Source: a virus (lineage: Duplodnaviria > Caudoviricetes). From it: DNA of 38,155 nt. The translations under genes were made by a program, and so were the position numbers. Where the stretch lies: positions 1 to 38,155 of the IMG/VR virus record IMGVR_UViG_3300022173_000059. The stretch is one strand, 5' to 3'. The notes under the pieces were generated by a model. It searched no databases. It was not told the DNA's origin and saw only the letters and a program-made list of their open reading frames with translations. Below, piece by piece: positions 9,799 to 36,686 of the stretch (the first letter of the stretch is position 1; every line of letters starts with the position of its first letter).

Positions 9799-9942
9799 AT
9801 GAACGCAGCAGCAGTTTACGTTTTCCGCGACGAGGCTTGCATGGCCTTCGGCTTCACAATGACGGCCGCTTACTTCAAAACCATGGAAGCCGCACAGGCT
9901 TACGCAAAAAACCACACATTCTGCAAAGTGGTTTCGCTCTAA
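9799..9942 (+). CDS. Small hypothetical protein (47 aa)
   Basis: ATG 9799 behind GAAAGG. MNAAAVYVFRDE... Confidence 0.55.
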   Translation: MNAAAVYVFRDEACMAFGFTMTAAYFKTMEAAQAYAKNHTFCKVVSL

Positions 9943-9945
9943 ACG

Positions 9946-9969
9946 GACAACACCAGCAGCAAGCCGGAC
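9946..9969 (+). repeat. 24-bp direct repeat, copy 1
   Basis: GACAACACCAGCAGCAAGCCGGAC, 23/24 identical to 10669-10692. Confidence 0.9.
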
Positions 9970-9989
9970 ACCATTACCAAGGAAATATA

Positions 9990-10670
9990 TTGAAAGTCGT
10001 TCCTATCACCAAAAAGCAGGCCGACGTGTTCGTGACGCAGAAGCACTACAGTCGCCGCGCTTCGATTTTTTGGGCCGGCTTCGGCTTGGAAATTGACGGC
10101 AAGATTGAGGGCGTTTGCGTCTATGGCCAGCCATCGCCGCCAATCCAGCGTCATGCGTTCAAAGACCGCGATTTCCGACTGTATGAACTGGCGCGGCTTG
10201 TCGTTCAGACCGGCGAGAAAAATGCGGCGTCATTTTTGGTGGGGCGATCCTTGCAGATGCTGGAAAGTCCTTGCGCCGTCGTAAGCTACGCCGACACTGA
10301 ACACGGGCACGCCGGCATCATCTACCAAGCAACGAACTGGATTTACACCGGGGCCACCAAGTCACACGATCACGCATATATCGTTGACGGGAAGCGCGTT
10401 CATCCCATGACGCTGCGCGACCGTGGAATAACGGACCCGAAGCGATGGGCGGCTGAAAACAAGATTGAGACAGCGCCGCCGATGCAAAAACACCGATACT
10501 TTTTCGCCTGCGGGAACAAGGCGCAAAAGAAATCCATTCTTACGCGTCTCAACTACCCAGCGAATGACAACTACCCGAAGCTGCCAAAAAGCATGTACGA
10601 CGCCGGCCCTCACATTCTGATGGCGGCGAACGACAACACACCCGCGCAATCGGCGCTGAACATCGCCTGA
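9990..10670 (+). CDS. mom: Mom-family (GNAT-fold) DNA adenine modification protein
   Basis: KHYS, YELARL and VVSYAD..HGH.GIIYQATNWIYTG signature. TTG start at 9990 behind AAGGA. Confidence 0.8.
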   Translation: MKVVPITKKQADVFVTQKHYSRRASIFWAGFGLEIDGKIEGVCVYGQPSPPIQRHAFKDRDFRLYELARLVVQTGEKNAASFLVGRSLQMLESPCAVVSYADTEHGHAGIIYQATNWIYTGATKSHDHAYIVDGKRVHPMTLRDRGITDPKRWAAENKIETAPPMQKHRYFFACGNKAQKKSILTRLNYPANDNYPKLPKSMYDAGPHILMAANDNTPAQSALNIA

Positions 10671-11114: not shown

Positions 11115-11582
11115 ATGACCAGAAAGCGCACAGTACGCAAGGTGTGGAAAAAGCTGGACGCGGTATCCCACGCTATCGCTGGAGCCTCGATCACACCCAG
11201 GGTGGAGCTAGACAAACTACTGATGCGCGAGCTTTCCGCTTTGGATGACATGACCAAGGGAAAAGCCAGCCTGCAACAGTGGTTTGACCTGGCAAACGTG
11301 GTTAATCTATGCGAAACCCTGGCGCATGAGAAAGTCGGGGCTGAGGCCAAGGAATCGTGCGGTATTGCACAGGATTCTTTGATTGAGGCGGCGAAGCGGT
11401 TTCAGGACACCAAGCGCATGGGTCTGTCGGGGATTGGCATTCAGGCGGTGCGAAATGTCATCGAATTTCACGACCTACAGCGCTCCAGCATCCCGCGCAG
11501 CCAGTACGAGGCCATCATCCGACTTACTGCCGCCCGGGTGAAGAGCGGGTATGCGACAGTTGATATTGGAGAATTGACATGA
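11115..11582 (+). CDS. Conserved phage hypothetical protein
   Basis: MTRKRTVRKVW..., 155-aa helical protein. Confidence 0.75.
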   Translation: MTRKRTVRKVWKKLDAVSHAIAGASITPRVELDKLLMRELSALDDMTKGKASLQQWFDLANVVNLCETLAHEKVGAEAKESCGIAQDSLIEAAKRFQDTKRMGLSGIGIQAVRNVIEFHDLQRSSIPRSQYEAIIRLTAARVKSGYATVDIGELT

Positions 11583-11749
11583 AGACGCTATTCGAGAAGA
11601 TGCGAAACAACCGACCTAAATTGGTATTGGCAAAGAAACGCCCTGAAAAACCTGCTCTGTTTACTGCAAGGATGATGAGCGAGGAATATCACCGCGTTTA
11701 TGATGGATTTATGAAAGAAAGCAATAATGCATGGAGAAATCGTATGTGA
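11579..11749 (+). CDS. Hypothetical basic protein (56 aa, not in ORF track)
   Basis: ATGA overlap, GGAG RBS. MKTLFEKMRNNRPKLVLAKK... Confidence 0.5.
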   Translation: MKTLFEKMRNNRPKLVLAKKRPEKPALFTARMMSEEYHRVYDGFMKESNNAWRNRM

Positions 11750-11762
11750 TGGACCATGAAGA

Positions 11763-11830
11763 CTTCGGATTTGACCATAAGCACGCTAACCACGAGGTAA
11801 ATCGTGTTGATGCTTGTTAGCAGTCCGAAG
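11763..11830 (+). other. Long imperfect hairpin preceding the tRNA-like RNA
   Basis: CTTCGGA/TCCGAAG, TAAGCA/TGCTTG and CACGA/TCGTG nested stems. Confidence 0.6.
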
Positions 11831-11833
11831 CCT

Positions 11834-11992
11834 TGATGGTGAATGCGCAGGCTGATGCGCAGATTGCTACGGGCAGCTAGAGAGACGATTGTGACTAAGG
11901 CGCTTACTAGTCCAGCGCGCGAAGGCAAACCGACTGGGTGTTCGTCCGCCTAAGTAGCAACGCCGGATATCAGCACCGGCCACCATCAACCA
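11834..11992 (+). ncRNA. tRNA-like structured RNA with kissing loops and ACCA end
   Basis: Stems TGATGGTG/CACCATCA+ACCA, TGCGCA/TGCGCA, TTGCTAC/GTAGCAA and GCCGG/CCGGC. GCTGAT and ATCAGC in the two loop regions are complementary. Confidence 0.7.
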
Positions 11993-12083
11993 ATTACCCA
12001 AACCAATTAATTGCGCTATCATTCCCGGGCCGACCGTGCGGCTTCCACGGGTCGCCTACGGGCAGTGATAAGCGGGATTAGCG

Positions 12084-12332
12084 ATGCGATTTGTTCCAAA
12101 CTGGCTGCACAGCCGACTTATTCGTTTTCGCTGGTATCGACGCCAGTGCGGAATCCCAGAGGTTAGCCACACCATTCTAGAGATTACTCGCGCGTCTTTG
12201 CGAATTCTGGAAGCCAACCTCAAGTTCGCAGAGAACATTCAGCGCGAGTATCCTACGGATGGCAAAGCGGGCGGGATGATTTCCATCGCAAAACCTCCTC
12301 GATATACCGTTAGGACTGGGGTGGCTAAATGA
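12084..12332 (+). CDS. Small protein containing a paralog of the major capsid N-terminus
   Basis: SLRILEANLKFAENIQREY...ISIAKPPRYTVRTG aligns with coat SLAILENMLGFSKNVNRDY...INIKRPPRYTYRAG. The stop overlaps the terS ATG. Confidence 0.75.
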   Translation: MRFVPNWLHSRLIRFRWYRRQCGIPEVSHTILEITRASLRILEANLKFAENIQREYPTDGKAGGMISIAKPPRYTVRTGVAK

Positions 12333-12802
12333 CAGCGGGACGCCCAACCAAATACAAACTGGAGTACGTCGCACAAGCCGCTAAGCTTTGCCAATTGGGA
12401 GCCACAGACGCGCAACTGGCTGATTTCTTTGAGGTTTCTCTTAGTACTATCAGCTTATGGAAGGTGGAGCACACTGAATTTTCGGACGCCATAAAAATCC
12501 CAAAGGATCAGGCCAACGAGCGAGTTGCCCAAAGCCTTTACCGTCGTGCCATGGGGTATGAGCATGACGAGGTGGATATTAAGGTGGTGGACAAAGAGAT
12601 TGTCATCACGCCGATACGCAAGTATTACCCGCCTGATTCAACGGCCATGATCTTTTGGCTCAAGAATCGCCAGCCGGACCAATGGCGGGATAAAACAGAG
12701 GTTTCTGGGGAAATGCGCGTCATTAGCGCAACCGACCTAAAAGACGATGAACTCGCCGCTATCGCCACAAGCAGCAGCAGCGGAACTGTTAGCAAGGCGT
12801 AA
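12329..12802 (+). CDS. terS: Terminase small subunit
   Basis: GRPTKY, GATDAQLADFFEV HTH and AMIFWLKNR..QWRDK motifs. Precedes terL. Confidence 0.85.
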   Translation: MTAGRPTKYKLEYVAQAAKLCQLGATDAQLADFFEVSLSTISLWKVEHTEFSDAIKIPKDQANERVAQSLYRRAMGYEHDEVDIKVVDKEIVITPIRKYYPPDSTAMIFWLKNRQPDQWRDKTEVSGEMRVISATDLKDDELAAIATSSSSGTVSKA

Positions 12803-14168
12803 GGCGCGGGCTGGTCTGCTCGGGTTCACTGAGTACACCAATTCCGCTTACGCCGCTGCGCCGCACCATACGCTGATCTCTGAAAAGCTTGAGGCTGTTG
12901 AGCGGGGAGAGATTAAGCGCCTGATGATCTGCATGCCGCCAAGGCACGGGAAGTCTGAGCTTGCCTCGCGTCGGTTCCCGGCCTGGTTCCTTGGCAGGAA
13001 TAGCGGTAAGCAAATCATTGCCGCCTCATATAACGCGGATCTGGCTAATGACTTTGGCCGTGAGGTGCGCAACATCGTAGACAGCAACGAGTTTCGGGCG
13101 CTGTTCGATGCCAGCCTATCCGAAGACTCAAGGGCTGCTAACAGGTGGCACACGAACGGCGGTGGCATGTACGTCGCTGCCGGTGTTGGCACTGCGGTTA
13201 CTGGCCGTGGCGCTGACGTGCTGTTGATTGATGACCCATTCAAAGATCGTGAGGAAGCCGACAGCGAGCTTAGACGCCAGCGGGTTTGGGATTGGTACAC
13301 ATCCACGGCTTACACGCGCCTGATGCCTGGAGGGGCTATCGTGGTCATCAATACCCGATGGCACGACGATGATCTATCGGGAAAGCTTCTCGCGCAACAG
13401 GATGATGGTGGCGATCAATGGGAGGTCTTGAGCCTGCCAGCCATCAACAAAGACTATGAGGCGCTTTGGCCGGAATGGTATCCAATTGACCGATTGGAGC
13501 AAATTAAGGCGGTCTTGCCCGCGCGTGATTGGAATGCCTTGTATCAACAGAACCCGATTCCCGACGATGGCGACTACTTCAAAACCGATTGGTTTGGTGA
13601 ATACGACGAGTTGCCGCCGAACCTGCGCATGTTTGGGGCTAGTGACTCGGCTGTGACCGATGGCGCTGGGGACTTCTCCGAGCATGGAATAGCGGGAGTT
13701 GATGCCAACAATAACATCTACGTGGTCGATTGGTGGTATGGGCAATCAGCTTCAAACGTCTGGATTGAGAGCCAATGTGACCTGATTGTTAAGCACTCGC
13801 CTATTTGCTGGTTCGGTGAGGCTGGCCCTATTAGGCGGGCAATTGAGCCGTTTTTGATGATGCGAATGCAACAACGGGAAGCCTATTGCCGTATAGAATG
13901 GCTCCCGAGCATTGCCGACAAGCCAACGCGAGCCAGGCCAATCCAAGCAATGGCAAGCATGGGCAAGGTATTTTTGCCTAAGCGCGCACCATGGAAAGAT
14001 CGGCTTTTGAACCAATTGCTGCGATTCCCAGCGGGTAAATTCGATGATGCGGTGGACGTGATGAGCCTATTTGGCCGTGGCCTGGAGCACATGAAGGGGC
14101 CGAAGCGTAAGCGCCAGCAATCAGAGGACAAGCCTAATTTCTATGGACAACAAGGTTGGATGAGTTGA
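12747..14168 (+). CDS. terL: Terminase large subunit
   Basis: MPPRHGKS Walker A, LLIDD Walker B, TRWH motif, C-terminal nuclease with DDAVD. Confidence 0.95.
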   Translation: MNSPLSPQAAAAELLARRKARAGLLGFTEYTNSAYAAAPHHTLISEKLEAVERGEIKRLMICMPPRHGKSELASRRFPAWFLGRNSGKQIIAASYNADLANDFGREVRNIVDSNEFRALFDASLSEDSRAANRWHTNGGGMYVAAGVGTAVTGRGADVLLIDDPFKDREEADSELRRQRVWDWYTSTAYTRLMPGGAIVVINTRWHDDDLSGKLLAQQDDGGDQWEVLSLPAINKDYEALWPEWYPIDRLEQIKAVLPARDWNALYQQNPIPDDGDYFKTDWFGEYDELPPNLRMFGASDSAVTDGAGDFSEHGIAGVDANNNIYVVDWWYGQSASNVWIESQCDLIVKHSPICWFGEAGPIRRAIEPFLMMRMQQREAYCRIEWLPSIADKPTRARPIQAMASMGKVFLPKRAPWKDRLLNQLLRFPAGKFDDAVDVMSLFGRGLEHMKGPKRKRQQSEDKPNFYGQQGWMS

Positions 14169-14539
14169 TGAAAACCGATTGGTCTAACGAGCACGCAAGC
14201 TGCAAGGTAACGCAGAACCCGGACCTTCCGGCCCACATGGACAGGGTTCGGGAGATTTCCCGCGTTTGGACCGACCCAAAGCACCGCAAGCAAGGGTTTG
14301 CAACCGAGCTTATGAAGGCTGTGACTGATGAGGCTGACATCCTCGGCATTGTGCTGATTCTCCAGCCATTGAATTGGGGGCGGTCTGGTGGAATTAGATC
14401 GCCTAAAGACTTGGAGGCCTGGTACAAGCGCTTTGGCTTCGTGAAGACCCAGAACAACCCCGTATTGATGGCCCGCGCTCCTGAGTTCCGGGCGACCATC
14501 AAGGAAACCGCCTACGCGATTGGATTACAACGTGGCTAA
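14168..14539 (+). CDS. GNAT-family acetyltransferase
   Basis: VWTDPKHRKQGFATELM acetyl-CoA motif A and WYKRFGF motif B. Confidence 0.8.
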   Translation: MKTDWSNEHASCKVTQNPDLPAHMDRVREISRVWTDPKHRKQGFATELMKAVTDEADILGIVLILQPLNWGRSGGIRSPKDLEAWYKRFGFVKTQNNPVLMARAPEFRATIKETAYAIGLQRG

Positions 14540-19348: not shown

Positions 19349-20110
19349 ATGTCTGGTGAGCAAGAGGTAGTTAGTACCGAGAACCCGGGATCTGTACCGG
19401 AAAACACAGAAACTCCAAAGGACGTGACGGCCACGCCAGAGGAAGTAGTAGAGCAGCCGGTCGCCAAGGTCTACTCGGAAGAGGAAGTCCAAGAGCGGAT
19501 TGAAAGAGCTACTGCAAAGGCCGCCGCCAAAGCAGAGCGAAGGGCATTTCGGGAAGCAGCAGAAGCGCTCCAGCGCCAGCCAGCCCACCAACAGCAGCCC
19601 GTTGATGACAAGCCTTCCCGCGCTCAATACGCGGATGACGAGTCTTACATTGATGCGGTGACTGATTGGAAGCTGGACCAGCGTGAACGTGTGTCGAATC
19701 AGTCGAAAGCAGTCGAGGCCCAAAAGTCCACGGCTGAAAAGACGGAATCGATGTACAAGGAAGCGGCGAAACTGCCAGGATTTGACCGTGAGGAATTCGA
19801 TGAATTGCCGATTACTCGGCCAATTGCCAAATTCCTAATGGAGTCGTCCGTTTCTGACAAAGTGATGGCTTACATGACCGCGAATGCGGAAGAAGTTGAG
19901 CGCATCGCCGGCCTTAGCGAAGTCAGGCAGGTTGCCGAAATGGGCAAATTGGAGGCTAAACTCTCCAGTGTGACCGTGAAGACGACAAAGGCTCCTGCAC
20001 CTATCAATCCTGTTGGTGCTGGGTCAACCCAGAGTAGGGAATTGAGTAAACTGTCCACTGCCGATTACATCGAGCAGAGGAAGAAACAAAACCCGATCTG
20101 GTCTCGGTAA
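19349..20110 (+). CDS. Scaffolding protein
   Basis: Acidic helical protein with EMGKLEAKL...KAPAPINPV, directly before the coat gene. Confidence 0.85.
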   Translation: MSGEQEVVSTENPGSVPENTETPKDVTATPEEVVEQPVAKVYSEEEVQERIERATAKAAAKAERRAFREAAEALQRQPAHQQQPVDDKPSRAQYADDESYIDAVTDWKLDQRERVSNQSKAVEAQKSTAEKTESMYKEAAKLPGFDREEFDELPITRPIAKFLMESSVSDKVMAYMTANAEEVERIAGLSEVRQVAEMGKLEAKLSSVTVKTTKAPAPINPVGAGSTQSRELSKLSTADYIEQRKKQNPIWSR

Positions 20111-20180: not shown

Positions 20181-21398
20181 ATGTCCAATACTTTGGTCAC
20201 TTGCTCCATCGTGGCGAAGGAATCGCTTGCGATTCTGGAGAACATGCTGGGCTTCTCGAAGAACGTGAACCGCGACTATGAAAGCGAATTCACCTCAAAT
20301 ATGGACCGCGGCTATGCCCCGGGCCAAACCATCAACATCAAGCGCCCTCCACGGTATACGTACCGCGCTGGACGTGTTGCTGTCCCCCAGTCCACCGTTG
20401 AAACGACCGTTCCGCTGACGCTGAATCAAGGCGGCTGCGATATCAACTTCACTTCCGCCGAGCGCACCCTGTCGCTGACCAAGCTGGAAGACAAGCTGAT
20501 GGCCGCTATCGCCCCGGTGTGCAACGAGATCGACCGCCAAGGCCTGGCTCTCGCGCATTACTCGGTTTACAACTTGGTGAACCCGGCCGGCGCGCTGCCG
20601 AACACTGCTGCAACCGCCATCGCAGCCATGGCTGACATGAACCGTCGCCTTGACGAGATGGCCGCTCCCCGCGACCGTCGCCGCGCTCTGGTGATGAATC
20701 CAGCCCTCAACGGCGCTCTGATTCAAGGCTTCGGCGGCTACTTCAACAGCCAAGCCACGATCAGCACCCAGAACCGCACGGGCCTGATGAGCAACCAGAA
20801 CTTCGGTTTTGACAACGTCGCTCTCGACCAGAACGTTGACGTCCACACCAACGGCGCAGCAACCGCGACCAACATCGCAGGCGCGAACCAGACCGGTTCT
20901 AGCGTCACTGTGGTGGCTGTGGCTGGTGGCACGCTGACCCGTGGTACCGTCATCACCCTGCCTGGCGTGTTCGCTGTCAACCCGCAATCGCGTCAATCGA
21001 CTGGTGTTCTGGCTGACTTCGTGGTGACGGCAGACGTCCTTGTCGGCGCTACCTCGATCCCAATTAGCCCGGCCATCGTTCCTTCTGGTGCATTCCAGAA
21101 CGTGACCGCCTCGCCAACGACTGCACAGCCCTACGTGATCCGTGGTGCTGCATCGACCGCCTACGGCACCAACGTCGCCTATCACAAGGATGCTTTCACC
21201 CTGGCCATGGTGCCTATGTGGATGCCTCCCAAGACCGGCGTTATGGACGTGGCGCAAGAAACGCACCAAGGCATGACCGTGAAGGTCACTCAGGTGTATG
21301 ACGGCGTGAACGACAACTCGCTGATGCGTATTGACGTGCTGTTTGGCTGGGCCGCGACCTATCCCGAACTCGCCGTGAAGTTCTACAGCGTCCAGTAA
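20181..21398 (+). CDS. Major capsid protein (P22 gp5-like)
   Basis: 405 aa, NVAYHKDAFTLA and RIDVLFGW...PE C-terminal motifs of the P22 coat family. Confidence 0.92.
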   Translation: MSNTLVTCSIVAKESLAILENMLGFSKNVNRDYESEFTSNMDRGYAPGQTINIKRPPRYTYRAGRVAVPQSTVETTVPLTLNQGGCDINFTSAERTLSLTKLEDKLMAAIAPVCNEIDRQGLALAHYSVYNLVNPAGALPNTAATAIAAMADMNRRLDEMAAPRDRRRALVMNPALNGALIQGFGGYFNSQATISTQNRTGLMSNQNFGFDNVALDQNVDVHTNGAATATNIAGANQTGSSVTVVAVAGGTLTRGTVITLPGVFAVNPQSRQSTGVLADFVVTADVLVGATSIPISPAIVPSGAFQNVTASPTTAQPYVIRGAASTAYGTNVAYHKDAFTLAMVPMWMPPKTGVMDVAQETHQGMTVKVTQVYDGVNDNSLMRIDVLFGWAATYPELAVKFYSVQ

Positions 21399-29499: not shown

Positions 29500-29997
29500 C
29501 TAGATCGTGCATCCCGGATGAAGCAAACGTTTAGCTACTAAATATGCTTGATGTGCTTCTTCTGGAGTGTCAAATCTCCCCAGATTATGAATTTTTTTGT
29601 TGACAGATATAGAAGCACGCCATCTTCCGGAAAACCACCGAACACCCAGAAAGCCACTTTTGTTTCCTTTTTGCGGAGCGTGTTGGTTTTGCATGTTAAT
29701 ACCATGGTTGGCTTCGCGCAGATTCGACCAACGGTTATCTGATGGGATGCCATTTATGTGGTCAACAAGCTTAGGCCATGAACCCGTCATGTAAAACCAC
29801 GCAAGCCGGTGAGACAGATATGGTGTGTTATCCACTTTCAGCCTTGTGTGCCCGTGTGTAAGCGGAGAGCTTTTGACGACGCCAAGAGGTACTCGTTTAG
29901 ACGCAGCAAGCCTTGTGAAAACGCCAGTATCTGGGTTGTAGTGAATTAATTGCTTAAGCCGTTCAACGGTTAAGGCCTTAGAATATTTGTCATCCAT
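29500..29997 (-). CDS. HNH homing endonuclease with AP2-like domain
   Basis: HRLAWFYMTG, VDHINGIPSDNRWSNLR, and SGFLGV...WRASI...LGRFDT motifs. Confidence 0.9.
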   Translation of the reverse strand: MDDKYSKALTVERLKQLIHYNPDTGVFTRLAASKRVPLGVVKSSPLTHGHTRLKVDNTPYLSHRLAWFYMTGSWPKLVDHINGIPSDNRWSNLREANHGINMQNQHAPQKGNKSGFLGVRWFSGRWRASISVNKKIHNLGRFDTPEEAHQAYLVAKRLLHPGCTI

Positions 29998-33449: not shown

Positions 33450-33481
33450 AGCCCGGTTCCTCACGGTTCCGGGCTTTTTTT
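33450..33481 (+). terminator. Intrinsic terminator of the late operon
   Basis: AGCCCGG...CCGGGCT followed by a T tract. Confidence 0.8.
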
Positions 33482-34121
33482 ACATCACGTCAGCGATGCA
33501 CTTCCTGAGAACGTCGCGCTTCATGGCGTACCCCTCTGGCTTGGTCGGGTGAATGCCATCCTCAAGAGGCACCCGTGGTTGAGCGCAGAAGTAAACCCCC
33601 TTGTGGGTGGCCAGAGCTTTCATCGCGGCGCGCCGTTCCTCGAAAGCGGCCACGTCGAACTTGATCGCAGCCATCAAAGGCGTCTCAGTCTCGCCGGCCG
33701 GGTTCGGCTCTTCGAGAATCACGATCTTCCCGGCCTTTTGAGCGACCGTCACCATCTCGCGCAAATTGGCTTTGTAAACCTCCAGCGGATAACCTCGATC
33801 ATTGATGCCGTGGTTTATGACGATGATCTTGGTGGGTTCAGCGCGCATCATTTCGGGCCATGGGTAGTTCACCCCGTCCGTGCCGGCCAGAAGCTGCGCG
33901 GTGTTAGTCCCGCTCACCCCACGGTTGTAGACCTTGGCCCCGGGTGCGCTGGCCGCGTGTGGCTGGCCTTGAGCAGCTTGGGTGCTGTCGCCGTAGGCTG
34001 AAATCAGATACTGGTCAGGAATCGGCATGTTCGACTCCGTCGGCGCAACCGAAGACCCACCCCCGCCACAAGCGGAAAGCAGGACTGCGAGAGAGATTGA
34101 AAGAAGAATTTTGCCTGTCAT
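33480..34121 (-). CDS. SGNH/GDSL hydrolase lipoprotein
   Basis: LLSAC lipobox. GDST, GVSG, GIND and DGIHP match SGNH blocks I, II, III and V. Confidence 0.88.
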   Translation of the reverse strand: MTGKILLSISLAVLLSACGGGGSSVAPTESNMPIPDQYLISAYGDSTQAAQGQPHAASAPGAKVYNRGVSGTNTAQLLAGTDGVNYPWPEMMRAEPTKIIVINHGINDRGYPLEVYKANLREMVTVAQKAGKIVILEEPNPAGETETPLMAAIKFDVAAFEERRAAMKALATHKGVYFCAQPRVPLEDGIHPTKPEGYAMKRDVLRKCIADVM

Positions 34122-35873: not shown

Positions 35874-36165
35874 TGCTGCTCTCCAATCGTTTGCGCAGGG
35901 CGGTGATGGCGGCATGGCAGTCCGCGTAGCTGGACTGATCCTCGGAGAACCAGTTCTGAGCGTGCTCCAGCGCCTCGGCGGCGGTCCGCATCAACGCTTC
36001 GTCGGCCTCGATGCGGGAGTGCTGGTGGCGGAGTTCGGCGGCAGCTCTTGCGTACTGGCTCGCCTTCCTCGTTTCCTGCCCGATCATCTGATCAAGCTTC
36101 AGAAGCGACTCGGCAGACCGCTCGAATTGCCCCGCCAACCTCAGCGCTTCAGGTTGGTCGCTCAT
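35863..36165 (-). CDS. Hypothetical phage protein
   Basis: MSDQPEALRLA...AAAELR pattern. Confidence 0.7.
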   Translation of the reverse strand: MSDQPEALRLAGQFERSAESLLKLDQMIGQETRKASQYARAAAELRHQHSRIEADEALMRTAAEALEHAQNWFSEDQSSYADCHAAITALRKRLESSNGL

Positions 36166-36686
36166 GTGCTTTCCTTGGTGACGATTCCGGCGCAGAAGGT
36201 GAAGTGCTTTGACTCCGCCTCAGCCCGGGCGCGGATTGCGTCCGCCTTGTCTTTGAAATAGCCGATATGCCGACGCCGCTTGTTGCTGTAGATGTAGGCT
36301 TCCCACTTTTGTTGCCGGACATAGAAGCTGACGCCGCGAGTTCCGGAGGTGTTGCAACGAGGAGGATTTATGTTCTCGTTGTTCTGCTTTCTGGTGGCAA
36401 GCCGCAAATTAGCAAACCTGTTGTCATCTCGTACACGGTTCTCATGGTCGACTTCCATCTCCCTGGGGTCTTCGCCCGTCATGTAGAGCCATGCCAATCG
36501 AGAGGCTTTGAACCGAGCCCCGTCTATGCTGATGTGCGCATAGCCCTTGGCGTTGACGCCTCCAGCCGTATCACCTGCGGTGACGGCATTTGAAGCGGGT
36601 GCTATCCAGGTGAAAACTCCAGTGGCCGGGTCGTAGGCGAGGACATCGCGCAACCGCTGTAGTGACGGCAGTGGTTTTGCGATCAT
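36162..36686 (-). CDS. HNH homing endonuclease with AP2-like domain
   Basis: YDPATGVFTW, RLAWLYMTG, VDHENRVRDDNRFANLR and NTSGTRGV motifs. Confidence 0.9.
   Translation of the reverse strand: MIAKPLPSLQRLRDVLAYDPATGVFTWIAPASNAVTAGDTAGGVNAKGYAHISIDGARFKASRLAWLYMTGEDPREMEVDHENRVRDDNRFANLRLATRKQNNENINPPRCNTSGTRGVSFYVRQQKWEAYIYSNKRRRHIGYFKDKADAIRARAEAESKHFTFCAGIVTKEST

Follow-up and report, generated by a model that had tools for sequence, protein, structure and literature searches.

A Coat-Derived Open Reading Frame at the Start of terS in a P22-Like Phage as a Possible Capsid-Mimic Decoy

Organization of the Locus

The DNA analysed here, referred to below as the window, is a complete virus record of 38,155 nt with direct terminal repeats at its ends. 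Pfam and PHROG profiles identify a P22-like head module in it, consisting of the terS, terL, portal, scaffold, and coat genes (Table 1). At the start of terS lies P0001, an ORF of 82 codons that joins a cationic leader to a coat-like segment of 56 residues. Its frame is open from the ATG to terS, its stop codon overlaps the terS start in ATGA, and the start of the intact coat gene is 8.1 kb away, the overlap and the distance both being as described in the original prediction. Genes for an Erf-like annealing protein and an exonuclease are present in the phage; no integrase was found among 30 further window ORFs scanned, and PADLOC gave no match.

Some other genes of the record deserve mention. 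A GNAT acetyltransferase gene (14156–14539) lies between terL and portal, a position kept in many related phages, and a Mom-like DNA modification gene occupies positions 9837–10670 (PHROG 1384, E = 7e-45). Two PHROG 99 HNH endonuclease genes are present on the minus strand (29500–29997 and 36162–36686), the former being oriented opposite to the virion genes, and a lipoprotein-like ORF (33480–34121, minus strand) with a lipase-type match (PHROG 6102, E = 2e-7) follows the lysis genes.

The neighbour of the ORF is a tRNA-shaped non-coding element, which ARAGORN does not recognize as a tRNA gene and for which Rfam gives no credible match. This RNA has constant arms and a freely varying middle, and its two loops are complementary (GCTGAT/ATCAGC). 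Its arms recur in many unrelated GenBank phages and in many contigs; no description of such a tRNA-shaped element was found in the literature.

Table 1. Features of the P0001 locus and of the head module, and loci of the mini-coat family in other contigs.
Feature	Position	Strand	Evidence or remark
tRNA-shaped non-coding element	11833..11989	+	Fold z −1.4; neighbour of the ORF
terS-type leader hairpin, now 5' of the ORF	12013..12083	+	Shine-Dalgarno-like site at 12072–12077
Optional insert between terS ribosome-binding site and terS start	12080..12327	+	248 nt; contig 25, run X5
P0001, 82-aa ORF (26-aa cationic leader and 56-aa coat-like part)	12084..12332	+	Open frame
P0001 residues 1–26, Arg/Trp-rich	12084..12161	+	Net charge +6 over residues 1–25
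P0001 residues 27–82, divergent counterpart of codons 1 to ~63 of a P22-like coat gene	12162..12329	+	Two in-frame shortenings
Shine-Dalgarno-like site for terS in the last ORF codons	12318..12324	+	Duplex −6.9 kcal/mol
Terminase small subunit, terS	12329..12802	+	PHROG 309, E = 8e-55
Terminase large subunit, terL	12747..14168	+	PHROG 38, E = 6e-107
Scaffolding protein	19349..20110	+	PHROG 8865, E = 4e-28
Major coat protein, intact, P22 coat family	20181..21398	+	PF11651, E = 1e-31; PHROG 283, E = 3e-69
Mini-coat family members	L037:258-602, L239:7564-7908, L205:8335-8679, L240:6382-6729, L159:1341-1643		ORFs of 100–115 aa

Homology of the ORF to Coat N-Termini

Residues 34–79 of P0001 align with residues 11–64 of the phage's own coat with 22 of 54 positions identical (E = 4e-10). 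When a profile of 94 coat N-termini was run against 23,109 small closed ORFs, P0001 scored 49.6 bits (E = 3e-13), the best of the reversed controls reached 9.2 bits, and the one other strong match was a frameshifted coat. The proposal that the ORF copies the coat N-terminus is therefore borne out by both pairwise and profile alignment. A weaker match was obtained with PHROG 283 (major head), positions 12–59 (E = 0.021); Pfam at E 0.1 gave no match to P0001, and none of the solved structures matched the coat-like segment.

The homology begins at residue 27, where V-S-H-T-I-L stands opposite the coat start M-S-N-T-L-L, and hence earlier than residue ~33 as initially proposed; it stops four residues ahead of the ORF stop codon. 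Since residue 27 faces coat residue 1, the piece would correspond to codons 1 (now GTT) to about 63 of a coat gene, and it contains no stops or frameshifts. Only positions 7–63 of the coat profile, about one seventh of the coat, are covered. P0001, with its 82 residues and closing stop codon, is thus not a full-length coat chain of ~400 aa, and the spine helix and the A-domain, together with most or all of the P-domain, lie outside the match. By HK97-fold anatomy we take the coat-like segment to be the N-arm and the first half of the E-loop; it is collinear with the PF11651 match of the coat. The hydrophobic positions of the helix and the motif PPRYTVRTG are retained, and the structural model of P0001 consists of two helices with no predicted fold (pTM 0.30).

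Origin and Divergence of the Coat-Like Part

P0001 is 41–44% identical to the coat of its own phage and 50–53% identical to the closest sampled coats. By codon position, its identity to the own coat is 0.48, 0.69, and 0.29, in line with the earlier remark that the DNA has diverged, and different codons are used at 13 of the 23 residues that the two proteins share. Against the own coat and the best-matching coats together, identity is 0.21–0.36 at third positions and 0.64–0.75 at second positions, so the closest sampled coats are likewise saturated at third positions. A recent duplication of the own coat followed by decay was rejected on the third-position identity of 0.29. In a quick tree the P0001 branch is long (0.89) and its placement unsure.

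The coat-like part is also atypical among coats. It scores 44–52 bits, compared with 61–76 bits for all 40 held-out coats, and carries substitutions at conserved Met, Asn, Glu, and Asn positions. The conserved Glu of the N-arm, which is present in 78% of coats and which we regard as the probable equivalent of P22 D14/E15, is Ala in P0001. The loop has 15 residues versus 17 or more in all 91 parsed coats, and the N-arm has 16 residues versus 18–19 in 86 of the 91; both shortenings are in frame and are not seen in the sampled coats. About 13 of 18 highly conserved coat columns are kept versus 4 of 19 variable ones, with the alignment off-register near the loop. This contrast would be attainable by decay from an unsampled donor, because the coats themselves keep 90% and 41% at the same columns.

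The codon score of the coat-like half is gene-like (0.25 versus a gene median of 0.23). When real coat starts were randomly decayed to the same score, the frame stayed open in 219 of 489 simulations. Taken together, the divergence, the low score, and the in-frame shortenings suggest one of two histories for P0001: an old sequence altered under selection, or a fragment of an unsampled coat that has partly decayed.

The leader was described in the original prediction as an Arg/Trp-rich N-terminus unrelated to the coat, and this description holds: profile comparison found no homolog of it. The codon score of residues 1–25 resembles that of off-frame DNA. Three candidate identities of the leader were rejected: a remnant of the scaffold C-terminus (177 of the 265 shuffles reported did no worse), a Tat signal (no TIGR01409 match at E 1, best 19-residue hydropathy 0.63), and an amphipathic helix (no better than shuffles).

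An Optional Insert at the terS Start

Contig 25 of run X5 differs from the window at 1 of 104 positions over 11976–12079 and then continues, after one letter, with 12328–12438 at 19 differences in 111. This empty-site allele is given by a single 242-nt contig of a relative. In another contig, a related leader hairpin (L025:480-526) stands directly before terS. The X5 junction and the L025 leader together indicate that the leader belongs to terS and that the ORF is wedged between the ribosome-binding site and the start of that gene. As terS in the X5 contig differs by 17%, an exchange may have brought the ORF together with its terS allele.

With its original site now upstream of P0001, terS has another Shine-Dalgarno-like site within the last codons of the ORF (Table 1). 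At −5.3 kcal/mol the site before the ATG of the ORF is ordinary in strength, and the prediction that most of it is paired (unpaired probability 0.15) suggests low output. No sigma-70-like promoter was found in 11500–12800. The terS leader is predicted to pair with the ribosome-binding site, and translational control of terS is possible. A search with the leader-hairpin pattern returned L025 and two chance matches inside a coding gene. Between window positions 12013–12083 and L025, compensatory-looking changes were seen in three short leader stems.

Search for Relatives of the ORF

In a collection of 5.8 billion proteins P0001 was found only as itself, and its 53-aa coat-like part, a short query with little power, had no match among 1.84 billion representatives. 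A short-protein profile search gave 271 matches, and all of the 120 listed begin as coat N-termini and look like shortened coats. Scans of viral sequences returned coats that were complete or cut by a contig end, and a single one with a frameshift; a metagenome scan returned the window's own record and at least nine coats, and a genome scan produced a single coat-like match besides a chance one in a sensor protein. Look-alikes in the Atlas were all under 0.9.

Copy number was considered in whole records, of which 32 are at least 90% complete and some may be near-copies. The coat N-terminus was detected in 46 of 49 and in 38 of 42 of them, once each, and the sole extra match (11.6 bits) lies within a 446-aa frame. 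A second short copy was thus present in none of the 84 coat-bearing records, and GenBank phages likewise have one such place per record (14, 37, and 74 records). The coat N-terminal profile was also run on 62 distinct head modules that extend 3 kb or more upstream of portal; none of their frames gave a match, the window scoring 41.5 bits in the same search.

Homologs in the same position, whose absence the original prediction counted against itself, were therefore not found in the 62 head modules or the 84 coat-bearing records, and these records and the protein collections provided no ortholog for an estimate of selection. Coat-fragment ORFs before terS do occur in other phages, at five loci, as members of a different family; an N-terminal copy of the P0001 type is not among them.

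A Sister Family of Spine-Helix Mini-Coat Genes

The five loci (Table 1) carry small ORFs with an N-arm-like helix, a piece of the coat C-terminal strand (the weaker match), and a piece of the spine helix; P0126 also has this content. The ORFs are located directly before terS, or one to two small genes before it, and the terS genes are of different types. An intact coat is present in the contigs that bear them. Reciprocal comparison of the family profile with coats gives E ~1e-9 in two segments. For the six pairs that four of the members form, dN/dS was 0.14–0.28 throughout; in five of these pairs dS exceeded 1. The structural model of the family is confident (pLDDT 82, pTM 0.78), and fold searches with it gave no clear known fold (best Z 5.2; no E below 0.001). 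Because three of the five loci came from a targeted search, 5/62 is not to be read as a frequency.

The family profile (A3) has no match on P0001 or elsewhere in the window, and judging by sequence the family is not orthologous to P0001. What the two have in common is a coat-derived small gene just 5' of terS with an intact coat alongside. It follows from the spine-helix family that selection can act on coat-derived mini-genes placed in the pre-terS slot, the content of which varies widely. With its clear purifying selection and confident fold, this family is a better experimental target than P0001.

Two further observations were made in the related loci. In L205 and L240 the mini-coat ORF follows a GroES-like ORF (PHROG 3188 for L205). 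A 110-aa ORF at L032:1993-2322, with near-copies in L034, L035, L036, and L038, has a Tat-like leader (TIGR01409, 15.7 bits against a cut-off of 16.7) and matches the coat C-terminal strand weakly (E = 0.02–0.08).

Discussion

The sequence features make it likely that P0001 is a real gene, and the chances that its peptide is functional appear somewhat better than even. The best reading, to which we assign a probability of roughly 0.4, is an expressed decoy that mimics the coat. An optional coat-derived mini-gene would have been inserted at the terS start; its product, probably translated off the terS leader, would be the first of the packaging operon, presumably in low amount and ahead of the coat itself. 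Most likely, the decoy proper would be the coat-like half, aimed at a host protein that recognizes the start of the capsid protein, and a scarce, unfolded peptide would suit a scarce target that reads a short stretch. The gene-like punctuation at both ends of the ORF speaks for a decoy, as do the two in-frame shortenings, the retention of more conserved than variable columns, the gene-like codon score of the coat-like half, and the selected sister family. Against it stand the orphan status of the ORF in every search, the neutral simulations that leave the frame open, the score below that of held-out coats, the off-frame-like codons of the leader, and the low pTM of the model; moreover, a fragment that serves as a trigger might switch a sensor on instead of blocking it.

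As to the target, the original prediction pointed to sensing of the CapRel type. Its premise, that coats are immune triggers, stands, but the reported interfaces are mostly or wholly missing from P0001. CapRel is reported to bind the P-domain sheet and the spine helix (PMC9712102) and Avs7, Avs8, and Avs10 to bind the A-domain (10.64898/2026.01.04.697583), which makes them poor candidates here. Since the peptide has no predicted fold, a reader of linear peptides, as in the T4 Gol/Lit pair, is a better fit than these fold-reading sensors. Gol probably lies in the N-arm helix region. A CapRel-type reading would fit the spine-helix sister family. A wider proposal would be that P22-like podophages repeatedly make genes from coat pieces before terS, as epitope-sized mimics that absorb capsid-recognizing immune proteins before the coat is made. 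We consider this generalization doubtful; if true, each type of fragment points to a surface that is read by a host sensor.

A close rival of the decoy, nearly as probable in our estimate, is a recombination scar: the coat start of another phage landed at terS, the peptide is inert, and the frame is open by chance or through coupling to terS. P0001 is an orphan in every search and scores below every held-out coat, the empty-site allele has a leader that is 99% identical, and the Erf-like annealing protein and exonuclease of the phage are in keeping with such an event. The former start codon is apparently now GTT, the leader codons look off-frame, and neutral simulations keep the frame open in 45% of cases. 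A scar would, however, require an ATG to fall by chance at the right spacing from the ribosome-binding site, 26 codons free of stops in the frame of the coat piece, and a stop codon placed on the start of terS. The piece itself has no stops or frameshifts, with both shortenings in frame. Coupling alone would explain these shortenings and the ATGA overlap, but terS has its own site inside the ORF and hence less need for coupling. Finally, selected coat-derived genes occupy the same slot in other phages, which speaks against a scar.

An improbable alternative is an assembly poison, in which the peptide docks on the coat or scaffold of co-infecting phages of the donor lineage, or of satellites, and spoils their procapsids, the phage's own coat being too different. 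The greater similarity of P0001 to other coats (50–53%) than to its own, and the retention of the hydrophobic helix positions and of PPRYTVRTG, would be expected of such a poison, and assembly-blocking defence proteins such as Tab exist (PMC10884400). However, the paired ribosome-binding site (0.15) suggests small amounts of peptide against hundreds of coat subunits, and the position in the late operon, with no integrase in 30 ORFs, speaks against a guard expressed from a prophage.

Still less probable is a tuner, whereby the N-arm copy binds scaffold or relieves its autoregulation and so times head assembly relative to packaging. The statement that the P22 N-arm binds scaffold is confirmed: the scaffold binds the coat at the acidic N-arm residues D14, E15, and E18 and autoregulates its translation (10.1101/2022.12.13.520362). 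The coupling of the ORF to terS would agree with a role in timing. Titration of scaffold is nevertheless disfavoured by the replacement of the conserved N-arm Glu by Ala, and the ORF is absent from all 62 other head modules and from the relative with the same leader.

The two-part decoy locus of the original prediction, with the tRNA-shaped RNA and the coat mimic as one unit, is largely refuted and very improbable: the two adjoin on the same strand with no terminator-like site between them, but the RNA pattern was also detected at 5 of 312 other loci, all lacking a coat N-terminal ORF, unrelated phages and contigs carry its arms, the X5 empty-site contig has the 3' end of the RNA and the leader without the ORF, and the pattern was seen in none of the five spine-helix mini-gene loci, of which L037 starts only 257 nt upstream.

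The decoy remains the preferred reading. Capsid proteins are known immune triggers and are hard for phages to change, and a gene that copies only a recognized capsid patch would be a cheap counter-measure. Should P0001 prove to be a scar, it would nonetheless illustrate cleanly how such mini-genes arise at the terS start. The locus lends itself to testing, with a short ORF of 82 aa, an empty-site allele found in nature, and a selected sister family.

Comparison with Known Systems

In the largely open-access literature covered, we found no description of a phage capsid-fragment gene or decoy; this includes the available text of PMC12409349, PMC13728456, and PMC10884400. Nor was a free Gol-like gene acting as a blocker found there.

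The nearest relatives by homology are the P22-like coats (PF11651, PHROG 283), in which residues 1 to ~63 correspond to residues 27–82 of P0001. P0001 differs from them in having about one seventh of their length, two shortenings, an unrelated leader, and no predicted fold, and in being a separate gene.

By proposed action, the closest precedent is T4 Gol and the e14 Lit protein, where a short piece from the first quarter of the head protein is active and is recognized in the host; a 29-residue stretch of gp23 suffices to trigger Lit (PMC3014915). Unlike P0001, Gol is part of intact gp23 and triggers defence. CapRelSJ46 and Avs7, Avs8, and Avs10 show that HK97-fold coats are immune triggers, which is the premise of a coat decoy. 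P0001 is without the spine helix and A-domain that they read, and the sister family has the spine-helix and strand pieces.

T7 Ocr (PMC12409349) and Tab (PMC10884400) are small accessory phage proteins that work through mimicry, in the case of Ocr against defence, or by blocking virion assembly. Unlike P0001, both have tested functions and, in the available text, are not described as capsid-gene fragments.

In its genetic setting P0001 resembles boundary cassettes: it is present or absent, its junctions lie at a ribosome-binding site, and the slot is variable. Optional accessory genes and recombination remnants occur at phage gene boundaries. P0001 differs from the usual cassettes of this kind in its cargo, a fragment that stems from another lineage and belongs to an essential structural gene.
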